Of a stretch of 8,756 nucleotides of DNA, positions 1 to 8,756 are shown in pieces. Position numbers and translations under genes: made by a program. The stretch lies in NCBI RefSeq assembly GCF_003334385.1, contig NZ_QOWN01000071.1. One strand, given 5' to 3'. The first letter of the stretch is position 1, and each line of letters begins with the position of its first letter. Below the pieces are notes generated by a model, which did no database searches, was not told where the DNA came from, and was given only the letters and a program-made list of their open reading frames with translations. Source of the stretch: Escherichia coli (GTDB taxonomy: Bacteria; Pseudomonadota; Gammaproteobacteria; Enterobacterales; Enterobacteriaceae).

Positions 1-99
1 AACGCGAGGCATCGTCTTAACGAGGCACCGAGGCGTCGCATTCTTCAGATGGTTCAACCCTTAAGTTAGCGCTTATGAGATTTTTCCCCGCCAGCGTCA

Positions 100-876
100 T
101 CATTTCCGGATTTTCGCCAGTGCATCCGCCATGCTGCGGATTTCATCCCGTGCCTCCAGAACAACCTCCCGCAGAATATCCCGGTCAAACCAGCGACGGG
201 ACGGTTCATCCGGTATACGCAGCACATCACAGACCAGACCACTGGCCAGGATATGCTCAATACAATCGCTGACCAGGTACATTTCCACCGACGAAAAACG
301 TGCTCCCCGGTTCACGATGGCATCGAGCACCACGGGCAGATTTTCGTCATCTTCATCAAGCCAGCAGGGGTAATCGCTTTCCTTCACAACCAGACGAAAG
401 CGGCGCGTCTGGCGGGTCAGCAACGTCTGACCGGTGGTGGTCAACGCCGCACGGATACGCCGCGCATCTTCTGCCACCCGGCAACTGACACTGCATACTG
501 CATCGCGCACCGCATCAAAAACCGCCCTGATTTCTTCCTCCGTCAGCCATTCACCGGCATACGGGAAAGACACCTGCGTTCCGTCTGCCGGAAGTACCGG
601 CAGCGACTGCCACTGACTGCCGGACAGTACAACTTCCGCCCCGGTTCCGGTCAGTTTCTGAATGGCGGAGGCCAGGTGCGGCGGCAGCACGCCATCGTGG
701 CGGTTAACGAGTAACGTCGCCAGCCGGGGCGCATCCAGCAGAACATAAATGCTGATCCAGCCCGGATACTTCGGGTTACGCTGGTCAACATCCGTCTCTT
801 CCGGCCAGCCCTGCGCCAGCAGCAGGTTGCGGGCGTGACGACAAATCAGTGCGTTCAGCGTTGTGTTTTCGTTCAT
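100..876 (-). CDS. Hypothetical protein (258 aa), last gene of the methyltransferase-led operon
   Basis: Long ORF on the minus strand. The reverse complement of 877-895 gives ttcaGGGAGAacgattaat immediately before the ATG, a Shine-Dalgarno-like GGGAGA. It follows the three upstream minus-strand genes with short gaps. I do not recognise a family; function unknown. Confidence 0.7.
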
Positions 877-921
877 GATTAATCGTTCTCCCTGAATCGC
901 CGCCCGGAGGCGGCGATAACA

Positions 922-1356
922 TCAGTCGTTTTCGTGTCTGTTGTTTTTCAGCAGGGTGCGGGCCTGATTAATCACCGCCTGACGGCGGGTGACGCATTCC
1001 GGGACGGCGAGGCCATAATCCCGGGCGGCCCATTCACGTTTCCACAATGCCTGTTCAGCGGTCTGAATCAGGGACGTCAGCAGTTCAGCAGGGACGGTCA
1101 CCTGGCGGTTTTCTCTCACGTTATTGATGATCTCCATCGCCACGCCGGAAGAAATACCGGATTCAGTCCGCTGGTCTTCCGGGATGTCCTCCAGGCGCGC
1201 CAGGACGGTTCTGATTTCATGATCGGACAGAGAAATATCCATTCCGTCAGCGAGGGCCTGAATCTCTTCCGGGGACCAGATAACCAGCATCAGCGGCGTG
1301 TCTCCCGGATACTTTGCTGCCAGCGCCCGGCATAGCGTTTCGCATGTTCCGTACAT
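922..1356 (-). CDS. Hypothetical protein (144 aa), third gene of the methyltransferase-led operon
   Basis: ORF with a strong RBS: the reverse complement upstream of the ATG reads gattgAGAAGGAGAcgaga-ATG. It sits 13 bp downstream of the preceding minus-strand gene. No family recognised from the sequence alone. Confidence 0.7.
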   Translation of the reverse strand: MYGTCETLCRALAAKYPGDTPLMLVIWSPEEIQALADGMDISLSDHEIRTVLARLEDIPEDQRTESGISSGVAMEIINNVRENRQVTVPAELLTSLIQTAEQALWKREWAARDYGLAVPECVTRRQAVINQARTLLKNNRHEND

Positions 1357-1369
1357 TCTCGTCTCCTTC

Positions 1370-1591
1370 TCAATCTTTGAAGCAGGAATCCAGTTCCAGA
1401 ATTTCGGTATACGCCTCCATGAACAGGCGATTGGCGCGATACAGCGTCTGGCGTGTCAGGCGTTCAACAAGCACATCGGAATCAAAGCGACAGCGATGCT
1501 CCATATCGTTCAGCCTGGCCCGAAGGTCACACATGGTGTTGGCCACCTCCGCCACGTCGGCGCGAAGTTTTTCGTGTCCGGCATAGTTCAT
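1370..1591 (-). CDS. Hypothetical small protein (73 aa), translationally coupled to the methyltransferase gene
   Basis: Its ATG directly abuts the methyltransferase stop (minus strand reads ...TAA-ATG). GGAGG lies 8 nt upstream of the ATG, inside the methyltransferase 3' end. Small size makes the call less certain. Confidence 0.6.
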   Translation of the reverse strand: MNYAGHEKLRADVAEVANTMCDLRARLNDMEHRCRFDSDVLVERLTRQTLYRANRLFMEAYTEILELDSCFKD

Positions 1592-2275
1592 TTACGCAGC
1601 CTCCGGTTCAAACCAGTTATCATTCGCGGCCCCCTGCTGCATGGCCCGTTGCACGGCGGCCAGTCGTTGCTGTCCGGCACGGTGATACTGTTCAAGCAGC
1701 TCGATACCGATATACCGGCGTCCGGACTGAAGGGCGGCCACGCAGGTTGAGCCGCTGCCTGCAAACGGGTCCAGCACAATCGCGTTCGGATGTGTGAAGC
1801 TCTCAATCAGCGGTTGCAGGCTGGTAACGGGCTTTTCCGTCGGGTGATGACGATTGCCTGAATATTTCCAGCCCAGCACATCCGGCAGAGGGTTACGGGG
1901 CCGGGCCGGACTGCCCTTTGCCAGGATGTAAGCGCATTCGTGGCGGTACGCGACATACGCAGATTTGGATGTGTAGTTTTTGGTGAACACGAGGTGCCCT
2001 GCCACGCTGAATCCGGCGCGTTTCCAGGCCGCCATAAAGCGGTCAATACGGTGCCAGCCGTAGAAGCTGACCATCAGCGCGTCTTTTTTGAGTACGCGGT
2101 ACATTTCATTACAGGCCGGTTGCAGCCATTCATCGGTTTTATCGCCAGCGATGGTGCGCCCGAAACGGTCACGAAAACCGACGAGGTACGGCGGGTCAGT
2201 CAGTATGAAATCAATGGCGTTATCAGGAATACGGGCCATAACATCGATGCAGTTACCGAGGACAAAACGGGACAT
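1592..2275 (-). CDS. Orphan DNA methyltransferase, N6-adenine/N4-cytosine beta-class (227 aa)
   Basis: The translation contains DPPY near the N-terminus (ILTDPPYLVGF) followed later by an FxGxG AdoMet-binding motif (VLDPFAGSGST) and HPTEKP. This motif order is typical of beta-class amino-methyltransferases. RBS AGGAG lies upstream of the ATG (reverse complement of 2276-2290 is agaAGGAGcgttgtt). No restriction endonuclease partner is adjacent. Confidence 0.85.
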   Translation of the reverse strand: MSRFVLGNCIDVMARIPDNAIDFILTDPPYLVGFRDRFGRTIAGDKTDEWLQPACNEMYRVLKKDALMVSFYGWHRIDRFMAAWKRAGFSVAGHLVFTKNYTSKSAYVAYRHECAYILAKGSPARPRNPLPDVLGWKYSGNRHHPTEKPVTSLQPLIESFTHPNAIVLDPFAGSGSTCVAALQSGRRYIGIELLEQYHRAGQQRLAAVQRAMQQGAANDNWFEPEAA

Positions 2276-2620
2276 AACAACGCTCCTTCTCTTACAGAGG
2301 ACACCAGGAGGGCACCCCTGTGGTGCCCGTTCCCCGCTGCCTGTGGGCTGTTCACCGCGTCCGGTAACGGGTCAGGCCGACCGTGGAATACCGCAGCAGC
2401 CGTCGTCTTTCTGACGGCAAGGCTATGCCGCGAAAGCGGCTTGAAGGGCGTTCATCAGAAAAGGGCTCCTGGCTGGCGTACACTGGCACCGACGCCAGCC
2501 AGGAGCGGTAAAAGCGCCCGTCCCGTGCCTGATCGGACGCGGGACACTGACCACAGGCAGCGTTCCTGCCGCGCCGCGTCAGCCGGCGCAGTAAAAAGAG
2601 GAGCCCGGCGACATCCTTTG
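2276..2620 (-). promoter_or_regulatory. GC-rich, hairpin-dense non-coding leader upstream of the methyltransferase operon (possible promoter or single-strand promoter-like element)
   Basis: No credible ORF with an RBS. Inverted repeats read directly: perfect 15-bp stem gctcctggctggcgt (2465-2479) with acgccagccaggagc (2492-2506) and a 12-nt loop; GGGCACC (2310-2316) with GGTGCCC (2322-2328); GCCGTC (2399-2404) with GACGGC (2413-2418); gtcccg (2520-2525) with cgggac (2540-2545). The region lies between the parR terminator and the methyltransferase start. Confidence 0.45.
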
Positions 2621-2654
2621 TCGGAAAAGAAAAAAGGACGCAACAGCGTCCTTT
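2621..2654 (-). terminator. Rho-independent terminator downstream of the parR-like gene
   Basis: Stem AGGACGC (2635-2641) and GCGTCCT (2646-2652) with loop AACA. On the minus strand the hairpin is followed by a U-run (plus-strand A-run ggaaaagaaaaaa at 2621-2634). It sits 16 bp after the parR-like stop. Confidence 0.65.
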
Positions 2655-2669
2655 AACAGAGTTCAGTTC

Positions 2670-3098
2670 TTATTCATCATCCGGAAACAAGTTCTTAATG
2701 TTGTTTCTTGTTTCCAGGAGATTCTGATCGACTGGAGCAGATATTTCTTGCGTAGCAGAATCAACCGCAGGCAGGATCGTTTTTGCATTATTACCGGCAG
2801 ACTGCAGAAATGCCTCCAGCAAACGAACAACTTCACCATTTTCCTGTTGTGGTAGCGTACTACTGATAATTCGTTGAATATCCCGCATAGACGTGCTGTC
2901 TGTCAGGAATTCAGCTATCAGAAACGGCAATCGTTCATCCTGTTTCATCAATGCAGCACCACACAACATCATGGCCCGCATTGCCCGACCACGTTCTTTC
3001 TGAGGCAATTTTTCAAGAAACCTGTCAGCCACCCGATCAGCTGCATTTCGTTCCGGATAAATATAAAAAGAGCACTTACGATTATCAGCCATACTCAT
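2670..3098 (-). CDS. parR: ParR/StbB-like centromere-binding partition protein (142 aa)
   Basis: Small gene immediately downstream of the parM-like gene and overlapping it by 4 nt (ATGA). By recollection it resembles plasmid R1 ParR in its central part (...LPQKERGRAMRAMMLCGAALMKQDERLPFLIAEFLT...). An alternative start two codons in (3092) has better SD spacing. Confidence 0.65.
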   Translation of the reverse strand: MSMADNRKCSFYIYPERNAADRVADRFLEKLPQKERGRAMRAMMLCGAALMKQDERLPFLIAEFLTDSTSMRDIQRIISSTLPQQENGEVVRLLEAFLQSAGNNAKTILPAVDSATQEISAPVDQNLLETRNNIKNLFPDDE

Positions 3099-4075
3099 CC
3101 CTTCATTGCCATCATTCCCAACACCAGATCGAACTGAGGATTGTCACTGACAAAGAAACGGTTATCACCCACTCCTGTCGCTTTTTTTACTGCCCCAGCC
3201 ACAAGGCTGGCACCACCGCCAACAACCATAACATGAGTAAAACCAGCAAAGCGTCCTACTGAATCCGCCACACGATGCTGCAGTTTTTTTTCCCGGTCAC
3301 GTAATACTGTCAGGATCTGCTCACGCTGTTCTGCATTCGGGATATAACGAGTCAGGAATTCATTGTCATCCCGGCCCTGGATTAGACGATCTGCAAAATA
3401 AGAACTGGTTCGTGTACTCACATTCACATCCATCGCATGCTTAACTGCTTCAGTAATGATGGAAACGCCTGTCTTGGGGTCACAATAAGTTTTTGTGAAA
3501 CCGGACATTTTGCTGCGGACATGTGCAATATCAAGGGTCGTTCCACCGATATCAACGATCAACAGCGACTCCAGATCATTCAGATCTTTCAGCACGTCAA
3601 AACCGGCAGGCACGGACTCAGGCAAGACACTGACTTTACGAATGGTAAAGTTTTCACGCCCCTGAACTGTTACAGCTCGTCTGACATTATTTTTCTTACG
3701 TTCGATATTAGCCAGATTTGGCTGATCGTTCTCATCCAGATACTCACCTAAAGGTAAAGTCACAACAATATCAACAGGTTGCGGAGCAATACCTGACTGC
3801 ATCAACGCATGATGAATAGCAACCACATTAACGTCGCTGTACTGATAACGCGTTTCTGTGGTGCGCACTGCATCCGGACTCAATTGATCAAAGCTGTATT
3901 TCTCTCCATCAATCTCATAGTTTGCGGAAGCGGGTATAGTGGCATCAGTCAGTCCCTGCAGCGTCATAGACCATTCCGGTTTAAAACTATTCGGGCTAAT
4001 TAACGTTTTCACTGCACCGTCTTCAACCCAAGCCAGTTTGATGTTGGTAGAACCGTCATCTACAAAGATACGCAT
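3095..4075 (-). CDS. parM: ParM/StbA-like actin-family plasmid segregation ATPase
   Basis: The N-terminus MRIFVDDGSTNIKL, the phosphate-2-like LIVDIGGTTLDIAHV, and HVMVVGGGASLV match recalled ParM/StbA (R1/R100) motifs. I place the start at the ATG at 4075-4073, preceded by GTGAGGTTCTGG. The ORF track extends to a GTG at 4087 that overlaps that SD. Confidence 0.85.
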   Translation of the reverse strand: MRIFVDDGSTNIKLAWVEDGAVKTLISPNSFKPEWSMTLQGLTDATIPASANYEIDGEKYSFDQLSPDAVRTTETRYQYSDVNVVAIHHALMQSGIAPQPVDIVVTLPLGEYLDENDQPNLANIERKKNNVRRAVTVQGRENFTIRKVSVLPESVPAGFDVLKDLNDLESLLIVDIGGTTLDIAHVRSKMSGFTKTYCDPKTGVSIITEAVKHAMDVNVSTRTSSYFADRLIQGRDDNEFLTRYIPNAEQREQILTVLRDREKKLQHRVADSVGRFAGFTHVMVVGGGASLVAGAVKKATGVGDNRFFVSDNPQFDLVLGMMAMKG

Positions 4076-4087
4076 CCAGAACCTCAC

Positions 4088-4300
4088 AGAATAAAATGGA
4101 TTTTTTTAGAAAAATATGGTGTCGAAAAAGATTATCACCTAGAAACACGCATCAGTAAAGACCTGATATCGGCCACAAACAGAAAGATAAAGAAAAATAA
4201 AGACAAAAACCGACTCAAATAGCACACCAGGGAACAAACAAGAACAATAAAAGACAAATGCAGTTAAAATTCAGAAAAAAACTGAACAGGTGAACGGAGA
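4088..4300 (-). promoter_or_regulatory. AT-rich upstream region of the parMR-like operon (putative promoter and parC-like centromere)
   Basis: About 210 bp of A-rich non-coding sequence directly upstream of parM, where parC sits in known parMRC loci. Loose recurrences of aaagac/aaagat motifs are visible, but I could not delineate clear iterons by eye. Confidence 0.3.
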
Positions 4301-4664
4301 AGGGGGCTCATCCAGCACATGCTGTATTTGGGTTCAGTTTGGAATTCGGAAAATAAACCACGTTAAGACTATTTTTTAGCCAAATGGCTTTCAGGAATCG
4401 CCAGAATGGCGGGACAACAGTGGTTTTGGTGTCCGAAATCGTACAATTCTGTACATCTACGCAAGGAAATGTACGGAAGTAAGCCAAATGGTTATCGGAC
4501 GGTAGGAACATTTCGTACAGCCTTTACGTTCAGTGAGTGAGCTGGTCTGGATGTAACCACTCGTTCAACTCAATTCTCTTAGCGTGGGAAAATTTCCTTT
4601 CTCCAAGCGGCTCCCAAACCGTAATTCCCGGCAAGCCCGGTAAGCTGGGCAGCAAGCTAGGCAC

Positions 4665-4964
4665 TCAAAGAATGAACCGGGGATTCTGACGCTGACCTAC
4701 AACCGCCAGGATATTGACACGACGGGCCTTATCATTCACTTCATAAAGTACATGCTGCCCAAGTAAGCTAATACGACGAACCCCTTCGCCATAGCGTTCA
4801 TCAGTTTCATACAGCCGAGGGTAATCAGCCAGGCGATCGGTTGCAGTGATCAGACGCTCTGTCACGTTCCTTGCATCCCAAAGAGATGCATTCTCAGCCA
4901 GATATTCAAACAGCGCAGTTATATCTTCAATTGCACCTGGTCGCCATTCTATTTCATAACTCAT
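4665..4964 (-). CDS. RelE/ParE-superfamily toxin of a type II toxin-antitoxin module (99 aa)
   Basis: About 100-aa protein whose start overlaps the upstream small gene by 11 nt. The sequence pattern (YEIEWRPGAIEDI..., ...RRVNILAVVGQRQN) is consistent with RelE/ParE-fold toxins as I recall them. Confidence 0.7.
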   Translation of the reverse strand: MSYEIEWRPGAIEDITALFEYLAENASLWDARNVTERLITATDRLADYPRLYETDERYGEGVRRISLLGQHVLYEVNDKARRVNILAVVGQRQNPRFIL

Positions 4965-5217
4965 TGCGCAGTTCCTGATAACGTCCCTGTAGTTGCTGGC
5001 GCAGTTGCGCGGAACTCATTCCCGGCCGCTTATCGGCGCGAGCAGCGGCAACTTTCGCTCGTATCTGTTCGTCGTATTCTGCCCGTGCCAGTTCTTCATT
5101 AGCAAGGCGTTGCAATAGTGCAGACTTGTCTGTACTGCCTTCTGGAAAAATACGAGGCAGGCTTTCGGCCAGCTCGCGCAGGAAATTGGCGTTTTCGTAA
5201 TGTGTGGTGCTATTCAT
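4954..5217 (-). CDS. Putative antitoxin of the RelE/ParE-type module (87 aa from the second ATG)
   Basis: Small ORF upstream of and overlapping the toxin gene (antitoxin-first order). I prefer the second ATG at 5217 because the minus strand reads ATGAAGGGGGAGTCAACT-ATG, which places a GGGGGAG SD about 7 nt before it. The ORF track starts at 5235. Antitoxin family uncertain. Confidence 0.6.
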   Translation of the reverse strand: MNSTTHYENANFLRELAESLPRIFPEGSTDKSALLQRLANEELARAEYDEQIRAKVAAARADKRPGMSSAQLRQQLQGRYQELRNEL

Positions 5218-5291
5218 AGTTGACTCCCCCTTCATTTAATAAAGAGCAATTACAGGTTTTTTGATGTCGTACGCATGGGTATAACGAGTCA

Positions 5292-5305
5292 GAATATCGA
5301 TATTC
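5292..5305. promoter_or_regulatory. Perfect 14-bp palindrome GAATATCGATATTC upstream of the toxin-antitoxin operon (candidate operator)
   Basis: Read directly; self-complementary. It lies about 75-88 bp upstream of the preferred antitoxin ATG. Type II antitoxins commonly autoregulate through palindromic operators. Confidence 0.3.
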
Positions 5306-5619
5306 ACTCCGATGATATTGTTTCACAGGCAGGCGATAACCGGAAAATAATGCTCATTTACCTGGCAATCTGCGTGTTGTCAGGTTTTATACAGAGTATA
5401 TAACCTTTCAGACACAGCCACCAACATATGCCGCGTCAGCGGCATGGAAGGCGGTACTCTGTGGTTACATGCGGCACAAGTGTAAAACCGCCGAAGCCCG
5501 GCGTAAGCCGGTACTGATTGACAGGTTTCACCTTACCCACCCCCGGCCCTGCCAGACAGTGGGGGCTTAAAGGGGTAGTGTGACATCCTGACAGCAACTG
5601 AAAGCAAAATGTAAACACA

Positions 5620-5812: not shown

Positions 5813-6010
5813 ATGGAATTAAAAGCGAGTGAATTTGGTGTAGTTTTGTCCGTTGATGCTCTTAAATTATCACGCCAGTCTCCATTAGGTGTTGGCATTG
5901 GTGGTGGTGGCGGCGGTAGCTGCGGTGGTCAAGGTGGCGGTTGTGGTGGTTGCAGCAACGGTTGTAGTGGTGGAAACGGTGGCAGCGGCGGAAGTGGTTC
6001 ACATATCTGA
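5813..6010 (+). CDS. mcbA: Microcin B17 precursor peptide McbA, variant with a shortened poly-Gly linker (65 aa)
   Basis: The translation MELKASEFGVVLSVDALKLSRQSPLG-VGIGGGGGG-SCGGQGGGCGGCSNGCSGGNGGSGGSGSHI matches the microcin B17 leader and core as I recall them, including the Gly-Ser-Cys and Gly-Cys-Ser heterocyclisation sites. Only 6 Gly codons (5900-5917) follow VGI. Confidence 0.95.
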   Translation: MELKASEFGVVLSVDALKLSRQSPLGVGIGGGGGGSCGGQGGGCGGCSNGCSGGNGGSGGSGSHI

Positions 6011-6027
6011 TACGTTGAATTAACCGT

Positions 6028-6050
6028 TCAGGGAGCATGGTGCTCCCTGA
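6028..6050 (+). promoter_or_regulatory. Perfect stem-loop between mcbA and mcbB (10-bp stem, 3-nt loop)
   Basis: tCAGGGAGCA (6028-6037), loop TGG, TGCTCCCTGa (6041-6050), verified base by base. It starts 18 nt after the mcbA stop and encloses the first in-frame ATG of the mcbB ORF (6037). It is not followed by a U-tract. Confidence 0.5.
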
Positions 6051-6924
6051 TATTAAAAAAGGAAAAGATATGATCAATATTCTGCCATTTGAGATAATTT
6101 CCAGAAATACAAAGACCCTGCTTATTACCTACATTTCTTCAGTAGACATTACACATGAGGGAATGAAAAAAGTACTCGAAAGCCTACGATCCAAACAGGG
6201 TATTATTTCTGAATACCTCCTTGATAAACTACTGGACGAATCGCTTATTGATAAAGACAAGGGCAAAGAGTTTCTTATTACCACAGGCGTGATAAATAAA
6301 ACGAAAACATCACCTCTCTGGGTAAACTCAGTCATAATAAGCGATGTTCCACATCTTTTCAGTAATGCCCGGGAACAATGGAAATCTGATGGTGTTTTTG
6401 TTTCTCATATCATTGATATAAAAGATAATAATATTAATGTGAGCGATTCAACACTAATCTGGTTACATCTCGAAAACTATCATTCAGACATTGTAAAAAG
6501 AATCTATTCAAAATTTGAAAGTAACCCTGGTGTTGCCTTCATCCAAAGCTACTACCTAAAGGAGTCATTCAGGATAGATGGAGTATATTCACCTGATCTT
6601 GGTACTCCCTGCCATTTTTGTCATATAGAGAGATGGCTGAGCAGGGAAGAAAAAAGCTTCAGACGTAACGAAATGTCCTGGGCAAATTTACTTCAGTTAC
6701 TGAAAAAATACTAAATGACACTACCAGCATTGGCTTTAGGCGAGTCAGAAAGAGGATTCAGCTATCATTTAATAAAACGGCGACTTCAGGAGTTGACAGG
6801 TACTTCACTGGTTAAAAGTCATGTCGATAGCTTTATGTCATCTGTTAGCGCTGATTTAATCACCTGTATTTTATGTAAAGAGCCGGTAATTCACTGGCAG
6901 GCTTGCAGCTGTCTGGAGAGATAA
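6037..6924 (+). pseudogene. mcbB: mcbB (microcin B17 synthetase zinc-binding scaffold subunit) interrupted by an in-frame TAA at 6712-6714
   Basis: The 225-aa ORF 6037-6714 and the 69-aa ORF 6715-6924 are in the same frame, separated only by TAA. Together they give 225+1+69 = 295 codons, which is the McbB length I recall. CHFCH lies in the N-terminal part and CILC...CSC in the C-terminal part. An RBS-supported alternative start is the ATG at 6070 (AGGA at 6060-6063). Confidence 0.8.
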
Positions 6925-6925
6925 C

Positions 6926-7744
6926 ATGTCAAAACACGAACTCTCTTTAGTGGAAGTAACGCATTACACAGATCCTGAAGTTCTGGCCATTGTTAAAGAT
7001 TTTCATGTCAGAGGTAACTTTGCTTCCCTCCCCGAATTTGCTGAACGAACTTTCGTGTCCGCGGTACCTCTTGCCCATCTGGAGAAATTTGAAAATAAAG
7101 AAGTTCTCTTCAGGCCAGGTTTCAGCTCCGTAATAAACATATCCTCATCACATAATTTTAGTCGTGAAAGGCTCCCATCAGGAATAAACTTTTGCGACAA
7201 AAATAAACTTTCCATTCGTACTATTGAAAAGTTATTAGTCAATGCATTCAGCTCACCTGATCCTAGCTCTGTAAGAAGACCTTATCCTTCTGGGGGGGCA
7301 TTGTGCCCGATTGAAGTTTTTTTATGCAGATTATCTGAAAATACAGAAAACTGGCAGTCAGGAACTAATGTTTATCACTACCTGCCGCTAAGTCAGGCAC
7401 TGGAACCTGTTGCTACATGTAATACTCAGTCACTCTACCGAAGCCTGTCCGGTGGGGATTCGGAACGTCTTGGTAAACCCCATTTTGCTCTCGTCTATTG
7501 CATTATTTTTGAAAAAGCTTTGTTCAAATATCGCTACAGAGGATACCGGATGGCCTTAATGGAAACAGGTTCGATGTATCAGAACGCAGTATTGGTTGCA
7601 GATCAAATAGGACTGAAAAACCGGGTATGGGCGGGATATACCGATTCATACGTAGCAAAAACAATGAATCTGGATCAGAGGACTGTAGCGCCACTGATCG
7701 TTCAGTTTTTTGGAGATGTAAACGATGATAAATGTCTACAGTAA
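6926..7744 (+). CDS. mcbC: McbC, FMN-dependent dehydrogenase of microcin B17 synthetase (272 aa)
   Basis: 272-aa ORF, matching the McbC length I recall. It starts 1 nt after the mcbB stop, with GGAGAG 7 nt upstream, and contains a nitroreductase-like RPYPSGGALCPIE region. The gene order follows the known mcb operon. Confidence 0.93.
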   Translation: MSKHELSLVEVTHYTDPEVLAIVKDFHVRGNFASLPEFAERTFVSAVPLAHLEKFENKEVLFRPGFSSVINISSSHNFSRERLPSGINFCDKNKLSIRTIEKLLVNAFSSPDPSSVRRPYPSGGALCPIEVFLCRLSENTENWQSGTNVYHYLPLSQALEPVATCNTQSLYRSLSGGDSERLGKPHFALVYCIIFEKALFKYRYRGYRMALMETGSMYQNAVLVADQIGLKNRVWAGYTDSYVAKTMNLDQRTVAPLIVQFFGDVNDDKCLQ

Positions 7745-8618
7745 CCTTATGTCCGCATGGCCGGCCACAATGGCCATGAGTCCAAAACTGAACAGAAATA
7801 TGCCAACGTTTTCTCAGATATGGGACTATGAGCGTATTACACCAGCCAGCGCGGCCGGTGAAACTCTGAAGTCAATTCAGGGGGCAATAGGTGAATATTT
7901 TGAACGCCGTCATTTTTTTAATGAGATAGTCACCGGTGGTCAGAAAACATTATATGAGATGATGCCTCCATCTGCTGCAAAGGCTTTTACCGAAGCATTT
8001 TTTCAGATCTCATCACTGACCCGCGATGAAATCATAACCCATAAATTTAAAACGGTCAGAGCCTTTAATCTGTTTAGCCTTGAACAACAAGAAATACCTG
8101 CAGTCATAATTGCACTCGACAATATAACCGCTGCAGATGATCTGAAATTTTATCCTGACAGAGATACATGCGGATGTAGCTTTCATGGTAGTTTGAACGA
8201 TGCCATAGAAGGTTCCTTGTGTGAATTTATGGAGAGACAGTCCCTCCTTCTTTACTGGTTACAGGGAAAAGCCAATACTGAAATATCCAGTGAAATAGTA
8301 ACAGGCATAAATCATATTGATGAGATTTTACTGGCTCTCAGGTCAGAAGGAGATATCAGGATTTTCGATATCACCCTGCCCGGAGCTCCTGGACACGCAG
8401 TACTAACCCTGTATGGCACAAAAAACAAAATCAGTCGAATAAAATACAGTACCGGATTATCCTATGCTAATAGTCTGAAAAAAGCACTTTGTAAATCCGT
8501 AGTGGAATTGTGGCAATCGTATATATGCCTGCACAACTTTCTTATTGGCGGTTATACTGATGATGACATTATTGATAGTTACCAGCGTCACTTTATGTCA
8601 TGCAACAAGTACGGGTAA
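7725..8618 (+). pseudogene. mcbD: mcbD (YcaO-type cyclodehydratase of microcin B17 synthetase) truncated by an IS1-family insertion
   Basis: The ORF starts MINVYSNLMSAW... and overlaps the mcbC end by 20 nt. It runs 296 mcbD codons and then ends in G-stop, where the codons are supplied by the IS1 terminal repeat (GG-TAA-TG). McbD is about 396 aa by recollection, so roughly the C-terminal 100 residues are missing. Confidence 0.88.
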
Positions 8619-8636
8619 TGACTCCAACTTACTGAT
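8614..8636. repeat. IS1 terminal inverted repeat (23 bp)
   Basis: GGTAATGACTCCAACTTACTGAT matches the IS1 terminal inverted repeat consensus. It directly abuts mcbD coding sequence. Confidence 0.75.
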
Positions 8637-8756
8637 AGTGTTTTATGTTCAGATAATGCCCGATGACCTTGTCATGCAACTCCACCGATTTTGAGAACGA
8701 CAGTAACTTCCGTCCCAGCCTTGCCAGATGTTGTCTCAGATTCAGATTATGTCGCT
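8629..8756 (-). CDS. insB: IS1 transposase InsB, C-terminal fragment (5' end outside the window)
   Basis: The minus-strand translation ...[41 protein letters not shown]-stop matches the IS1 InsB C-terminus from memory. The stop TAA is the complement of 8629-8631. Confidence 0.75.

Follow-up and report, generated by a model that had tools for sequence, protein, structure and literature searches.

Microcin B17, an eight-azole gyrase poison, derives from the precursor peptide McbA. The reference McbA of pMccB17 (ON989342/M24253) is 69 amino acids (aa) long (PMC10912980) and contains ten glycines, G30-G39 (PMC6722960). McbBCD clamps the leader where McbB1 and McbB2 form an interface and installs the rings in N- to C-terminal order, with the core moving back and forth between the active sites of McbD and McbC, about 40 Å apart (PMC6395948). 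According to PMC5810440, the N-terminal leader is cut off by TldD/E. The polyglycine stretch is the spacer from the leader to the first cyclisable Gly-Ser-Cys, and its function is length-dependent in vitro (PMC6722960).

The literature on the required length of this spacer points in opposite ways. Sinha Roy, Belshaw & Walsh (1998), as recounted in PMC6722960, varied the linker in vitro in the truncated 46-residue substrate McbA1-46. The relative velocity was 2x with 11 Gly, 20% with 9 Gly and 10% with 7 Gly, a substrate that received one ring only, whereas 5 Gly was near background and 3 Gly gave no processing. In vivo, in contrast, the polyglycine appears dispensable. According to the account of Metelev et al. 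(2013) given in PMC6722960, chimeras of the Escherichia coli and Pseudomonas syringae precursors without polyglycine were processed normally, and deletion of G28-G37 retained 85% of the antibacterial activity. Collin & Maxwell (2019) recapitulate the linker kinetics and point out that the E. coli synthase processes constructs without polyglycine. The N-terminal stretch is moreover not needed for gyrase poisoning (PMC3622597).

That the Gly linker differs in length among E. coli McbA precursors was reported by Cox et al. (2015; PMC4603692), whose Table S2 contains alleles with 6, 7, 8, 9, 10, 11 and 12 glycines. The same authors described the 'faecalisin' group of TOMM precursors, whose members likewise differ only in how long a Gly repeat linker is, although that precursor family and its organisms are unrelated to McbA.

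The mcbA allele of the window

We studied a stretch of 8,756 nucleotides (nt) of E. coli DNA, hereafter the window, which carries mcbA and part of the mcb operon. The open reading frame (ORF) at 5813-6010 on the plus strand runs from ATG to TGA and is translated as MELKASEFGVVLSVDALKLSRQSPLGVGIGGGGGGSCGGQGGGCGGCSNGCSGGNGGSGGSGSHI, a McbA of 65 aa. It is divided as follows:

5813-6010 (+): mcbA with its stop codon, encoding the 65-aa allele of the microcin B17 precursor; from translation, with 100% nucleotide identity to the gene in plasmids pEcoUTI1d, EC03 p3 and pRHB23-C05_3
5813-5890 (+): leader peptide, codons 1-26, MELKASEFGVVLSVDALKLSRQSPLG; same as the reference by translation and alignment
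5891-5899 (+): codons for V27-G28-I29, by codon count from 5813
5900-5917 (+): Gly6 linker, codons 30-35, read as GGT GGT GGT GGC GGC GGT, against (GGT)3(GGC)6GGT (Gly10) in the reference
5918-6007 (+): heterocyclisable core, SCGGQGGGCGGCSNGCSGGNGGSGGSGSHI; same as the reference by translation and alignment

The identity of the gene is clear from three kinds of evidence. Firstly, residues 1-26 equal residues 1-26 of the 69-aa reference; we take the McbA leader to be 26 residues long. Secondly, the core from S36 onwards equals S40-I69 of the reference, including the cyclisable motifs GSCG, GCG, GCS, GCS and GS and the C-terminal SHI. Thirdly, mcbA lies immediately 5' of mcbB in the order mcbA-mcbB-mcbC-mcbD, a gene order shared with pMccB17. 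The counterparts in pEcoUTI1d, EC03 p3 and pRHB23-C05_3 are annotated as 'microcin B17 family TOMM' (WP_021545189.1).

The window and pMccB17 precursors thus agree in their leaders, in the V-G-I with which the core begins, in all heterocyclisation sites and in the C-terminal SHI. The window has four GGC codons fewer, so that its tract is Gly6 where pMccB17 has Gly10, and its mature peptide is predicted to have 39 residues, against 43. The sequence-only reading had described a 65-aa McbA with six glycines at 5900-5917 before Ser-Cys, and translation and codon reading agree with it exactly, as AGC TGC follows the sixth Gly codon directly. Its description of a 69-aa reference with Gly10 was also accurate: besides the published descriptions, 69-aa alleles of 210 nt with the tract (GGT)3(GGC)6GGT occur in public plasmid loci L004 and L013. 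Alignment to the reference gene and counting of the Gly codons gave 6 versus 10. The allele comparison further bore out the proposed 12-bp in-frame contraction and confined it to the GGC run of the GGT/GGC tract, where (GGC)2 replaces (GGC)6 and the remainder of the gene is identical.

Owing to its shortness after the contraction, the 18-nt Gly tract was not reported by Tandem Repeats Finder at a score of at least 30. Chance is an irrelevant null for this tract, since it belongs to a well-known gene.

Linker-length alleles in public plasmids

We set mcbA from twelve public plasmid loci against the window. Outside the Gly tract, the E. coli McbA alleles at these loci encode identical proteins except for one E2K allele. 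The usual structure of the tract is (GGT)3(GGC)nGGT, and the alleles are distributed as follows:

n=2, Gly6: window, pEcoUTI1d, EC03 p3 and pRHB23-C05_3
n=3, Gly7: public plasmid locus L012
n=4, Gly8: public plasmid locus L011
n=5, Gly9: public plasmid locus L003
n=6, Gly10: public plasmid locus L004
n=8, Gly12: public plasmid locus L007
Gly11 with a GGA interruption: public plasmid locus L006
Gly6, second codon pattern GGT GGT GGC GGC GGC GGT: pPRO_A-1462-6M-A_1 (L010)
Gly7, other codon pattern GGT GGC GGC GGC GGT GGC GGT: public plasmid locus L002

Copy number therefore varies among close relatives, from (GGC)2 to (GGC)8 on near-identical flanks, as in a contingency locus. The other hallmark of such loci, on/off switching by frameshift or promoter spacing, was not seen among the tract alleles compared, since each unit adds or removes 3 nt of coding sequence and every tract allele observed keeps the frame.

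The identical 198-nt gene was found in pEcoUTI1d (L001; bladder biopsy isolate, Mexico), EC03 p3 (L014; human gut, Spain) and pRHB23-C05_3 (L015; sheep faeces, UK). In addition, a 401-nt mcbA region of CP057527 (sheep faeces, UK) matched at the same length with 99.5% identity, and the Gly6 allele with the second codon pattern came from Tanzania. At the protein level, both WP_021545189.1 in RefSeq and row T8B6T6 of Table S2 of Cox et al. (2015; PMC4603692), E. coli HVH 216, are identical to McbA of the window, the latter string for string. Hence, the Gly6 allele is neither an artefact nor new; it is an ordinary allele that has already been published. Its discovery value is small, since the variation and the exact 65-aa sequence have been public since 2015 and the role of the spacer has been studied since 1998.

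In the plasmid database PLSDB, mcbA was present on 131 plasmids, of which three were 100% matches at the length found in the window. A further 23 matched at 95-99% identity, 80 at 90-95% and 25 at 80-90%. Among the matches listed, these bands corresponded to 201-207 nt, to 210-216 nt and mostly to the Klebsiella type, respectively. Complete RefSeq E. coli genomes contained mcbA in 107 of 5,426 cases, every time on a plasmid. Judged from match lengths, the 106 full-length matches in these genomes span Gly6 to Gly12, with three Gly6, two Gly7, one Gly8, eight Gly9, five Gly11 and two Gly12 alleles. The Gly10 length accounts for roughly 83-85 of the 106, or about 80% of the mcbA-positive records, a count inferred from identity bands with length checked in the matches listed. 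The survey of sequenced plasmids that the sequence-only reading had called for thus revealed tract-length polymorphism in both collections.

Shorter linkers exist as well. An exact-sequence look-up of the Gly4 to Gly13 forms returned only two of them: the 64-aa Gly5 form, on 155 contigs that have NCBI accessions, and the 63-aa Gly4 form, on 5 contigs. Forms of 65 to 72 aa were listed as absent. We did not use these negatives, as the look-up also missed the 69-aa reference, which is in RefSeq (WP_001535752.1). The misses of forms with at least six glycines are almost certainly false negatives of the index for long Gly runs; a word-indexed protein search missed most long-Gly alleles as well. Public records together contain a series from Gly4 to Gly12, in line with the natural length-polymorphic allele that the sequence-only reading had put forward as its alternative.

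The damaged mcb operon and the origin of the short linker

Between 5498 and 8613 the window is 99.4% identical to pEcoUTI1d, with zero differences within mcbA. The genes downstream of mcbA are nevertheless in a different state in the two operons. In the window we found:

6037-6924 (+): mcbB with an in-frame TAA at 6712-6714 (Q226*, CAA to TAA, C>T at 6712), by comparison with pEcoUTI1d
6926-7744 (+): mcbC, SagB/ThcOx-type dehydrogenase, full-length ORF of 272 aa, by ORF and comparison with pEcoUTI1d
7725-8613 (+): mcbD, YcaO cyclodehydratase, 5' part, about 296 of 396 codons; the match to the intact mcbD of pEcoUTI1d ends at 8613
8614-8756 (no strand assigned): terminal part of an IS1 inserted in mcbD, reading GGTAATGACTCCAACTTACTGATAG from 8614 and continuing past the window end; by identity to the annotated IS1 in L013

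The nonsense codon splits the 295 codons of mcbB into ORFs at 6037-6714 and 6715-6924 (225 and 69 codons) and so inactivates the scaffold of the synthetase. Full-length McbD is 396 aa (PMC10912980). Over 144 nt, the IS1 end shares 97.2% identity with the end of the IS1 annotated in locus L013; the window ends within IS1, and mcbEFG lie outside it. With mcbB interrupted and mcbD cut by IS1, microcin B17 cannot come from this locus. For annotation this means that the mcb operon is a remnant and that listing its host among microcin B17 producers is not warranted. In this respect the window differs from pMccB17, where mcbB and mcbD are not inactivated, and from the public 65-aa copies in pEcoUTI1d, EC03 p3 and pRHB23-C05_3, whose operons are annotated as intact. 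Compared with pEcoUTI1d, mcbC shows three nucleotide changes, all of them nonsynonymous (G114S, Y127C, A145S), which is consistent with relaxed selection after operon inactivation, albeit in a very small sample.

The mcbD::IS1 junction of the window had no match in PLSDB or complete E. coli genomes; in the best match containing IS1 (L013), the element is placed between mcbA and mcbB rather than in mcbD. Damage to mcb genes is recurrent in public plasmids. An IS3 lies just 3' of the Gly8 mcbA (L011:764-804), mcbB beside the Gly12 mcbA is annotated at 417 nt only (L007:576-816), the IS1 between mcbA and mcbB occupies L013:3074-3771, and mcbA itself carries a 1-nt frameshift at L005:301-511.

We consider it very probable that mcbA of the window is a natural in-frame length allele, formed by gain or loss of GGC units in the spacer tract (GGT)3(GGC)nGGT. 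Changes in GGC copy number on near-identical flanks are the pattern expected of replication slippage, and we infer slippage as the simplest route by which gain or loss of GGC would have produced the Gly6 to Gly12 alleles. The Gly6 allele circulates on F-type plasmids whose mcb operons are otherwise intact, as judged from annotation alone: mcbB to mcbG are each annotated at full length beside it in pEcoUTI1d, EC03 p3 and pRHB23-C05_3, and beside Gly6 with the second codon pattern in pPRO_A-1462-6M-A_1. This circulation implies that Gly6 is at least tolerated.

Alternatively, the contraction could be a by-product of pseudogenisation, with the tract drifting under relaxed selection in a dead operon. 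Such an origin would fit Q226* in mcbB, the IS1 in mcbD and the exclusively nonsynonymous changes in mcbC, and other off-modal alleles, Gly8 with its IS3 (L011) and Gly12 with the 417-nt mcbB (L007), also sit beside damaged operons. However, the identical nucleotide allele is accompanied by full-length annotated mcbB-G in three plasmids, Gly6 also occurs in pPRO_A-1462-6M-A_1, and Gly7, Gly9 and Gly11 alleles adjoin a full-length annotated mcbB. We therefore largely reject decay as the cause and regard it as improbable. Because the identical allele sits in operons annotated as intact, the contraction is most likely older than the decay of the operon. Since the operon of the window has decayed, the Gly6 allele is under no selection there.

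A second alternative is that linker length is selected for its effect on the yield of the microcin or on the product itself, whose site A might carry fewer rings and whose uptake or solubility might change, which would make the tract a tuning knob. The in vitro processing rate depends strongly on linker length, at least in the kinetics recounted in PMC6722960, where the 7-Gly substrate receives a single ring; uptake is influenced by N-terminal residues; and several lengths persist in nature, Gly6 having arisen with two codon patterns. Yet Gly10 is dominant, with the off-modal lengths infrequent and spread to either side of it, a distribution that resembles mutation-selection balance around an optimum. 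Moreover, an association with host, niche or immunity genes is not in evidence, 2-8 GGC units make a short run for a switch of high rate, and in-frame changes bring no on/off switching. We find adaptive tuning very doubtful.

A sequencing or assembly artefact in the repetitive, GC-rich tract can be dismissed as having a negligible chance despite the possible error behind the 1-nt mcbA frameshift in record L005, because the same 198-nt gene recurs in several complete assemblies that are independent of one another and differ in country and host, and the same sequence in a draft genome from the 2013 era that Cox et al. list, while a difference of exactly 12 nt in frame is not a typical homopolymer error.

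Homology to pEcoUTI1d starts only at 5498, and the layout of 1-5497 is unlike that of typical mcb plasmids, in that the parM-stbB-acyltransferase module is replaced. This upstream region contains:

1592-2275 (-): DNA methylase
2670-4087 (-): ParM-type partition pair
4665-5235 (-): yacA/yacB-like RelE/ParE toxin-antitoxin pair

PLSDB and the complete E. coli genomes contained no record of a ParM/yacAB-type module joined to mcbA, and none of their plasmids or genomes covered at least 80% of the window.

Predicted effect of the linker and variation elsewhere in McbA

The sequence-only reading had suggested that the length of the linker may affect processing. This point is established, with a steep drop in velocity below 9 Gly in vitro (Sinha Roy et al. 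1998, as recounted in PMC6722960). With n=2 instead of n=6, the spacer from the McbB-clamped leader to the first Gly-Ser-Cys is shortened. The closest experimental counterparts are the McbA1-46 variants of that account, in which the same spacer was likewise shortened; the six glycines of the window fall between two of the tested lengths, 7 and 5 Gly, but the variants were truncated substrates assayed in vitro, whereas the allele of the window is full length. In the P. syringae McbA and the chimeras of Metelev et al. (2013), in the description of PMC6722960, a short spacer or none at all precedes the first bis-heterocycle, and they are processed nonetheless, also by the E. coli synthase. They differ from the present allele in having other N-terminal residues and in not being GGC-copy-number alleles, and the P. 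syringae synthetase is divergent (35-55% identity).

The published in vitro kinetics would predict slow or partial formation of the first oxazole-thiazole pair for Gly6, while the published constructs without polyglycine suggest a microcin that is shorter yet still active. By analogy with these systems, a Gly6 precursor with an intact synthetase would probably still give an active product, of 39 residues and 228.1 Da lighter (four Gly), and its first oxazole-thiazole pair might be slower to form or incomplete. That a short-linker McbA such as Gly6 would yield a distinct product, with the first oxazole-thiazole pair absent or half-formed and with altered uptake or potency, seems unlikely. If true, the variation in GGC copy number would not be neutral noise but would act in nature as a dial for microcin structure. 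In practical terms, the disagreement between in vitro and in vivo literature on the linker length needed bears on natural short-linker precursors with 4, 5 or 6 Gly.

Diverged mcbA genes with 83-86% nucleotide identity are found on Klebsiella and Enterobacter plasmids (L008:301-504; L009:301-510). Their McbA has V27I, and Cys41 is replaced by Ser (GSSGG), so that the first site would give two oxazoles instead of an oxazole-thiazole pair. The tract varies here too, with Gly8 and Gly10 encoded by interleaved GGT and GGC codons.

Public in-frame deletions in McbA remove heterocyclisation sites as well as the linker (proteins P0010, P0013, P0020, P0025 and P0029). Among them, a 62-aa form that lacks the first Ser-Cys occurs on 22 contigs and one of 54 aa on 11 contigs; another, of 56 aa, is named from Salmonella. 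The entire GGN-rich core of McbA appears to be deletion-prone.
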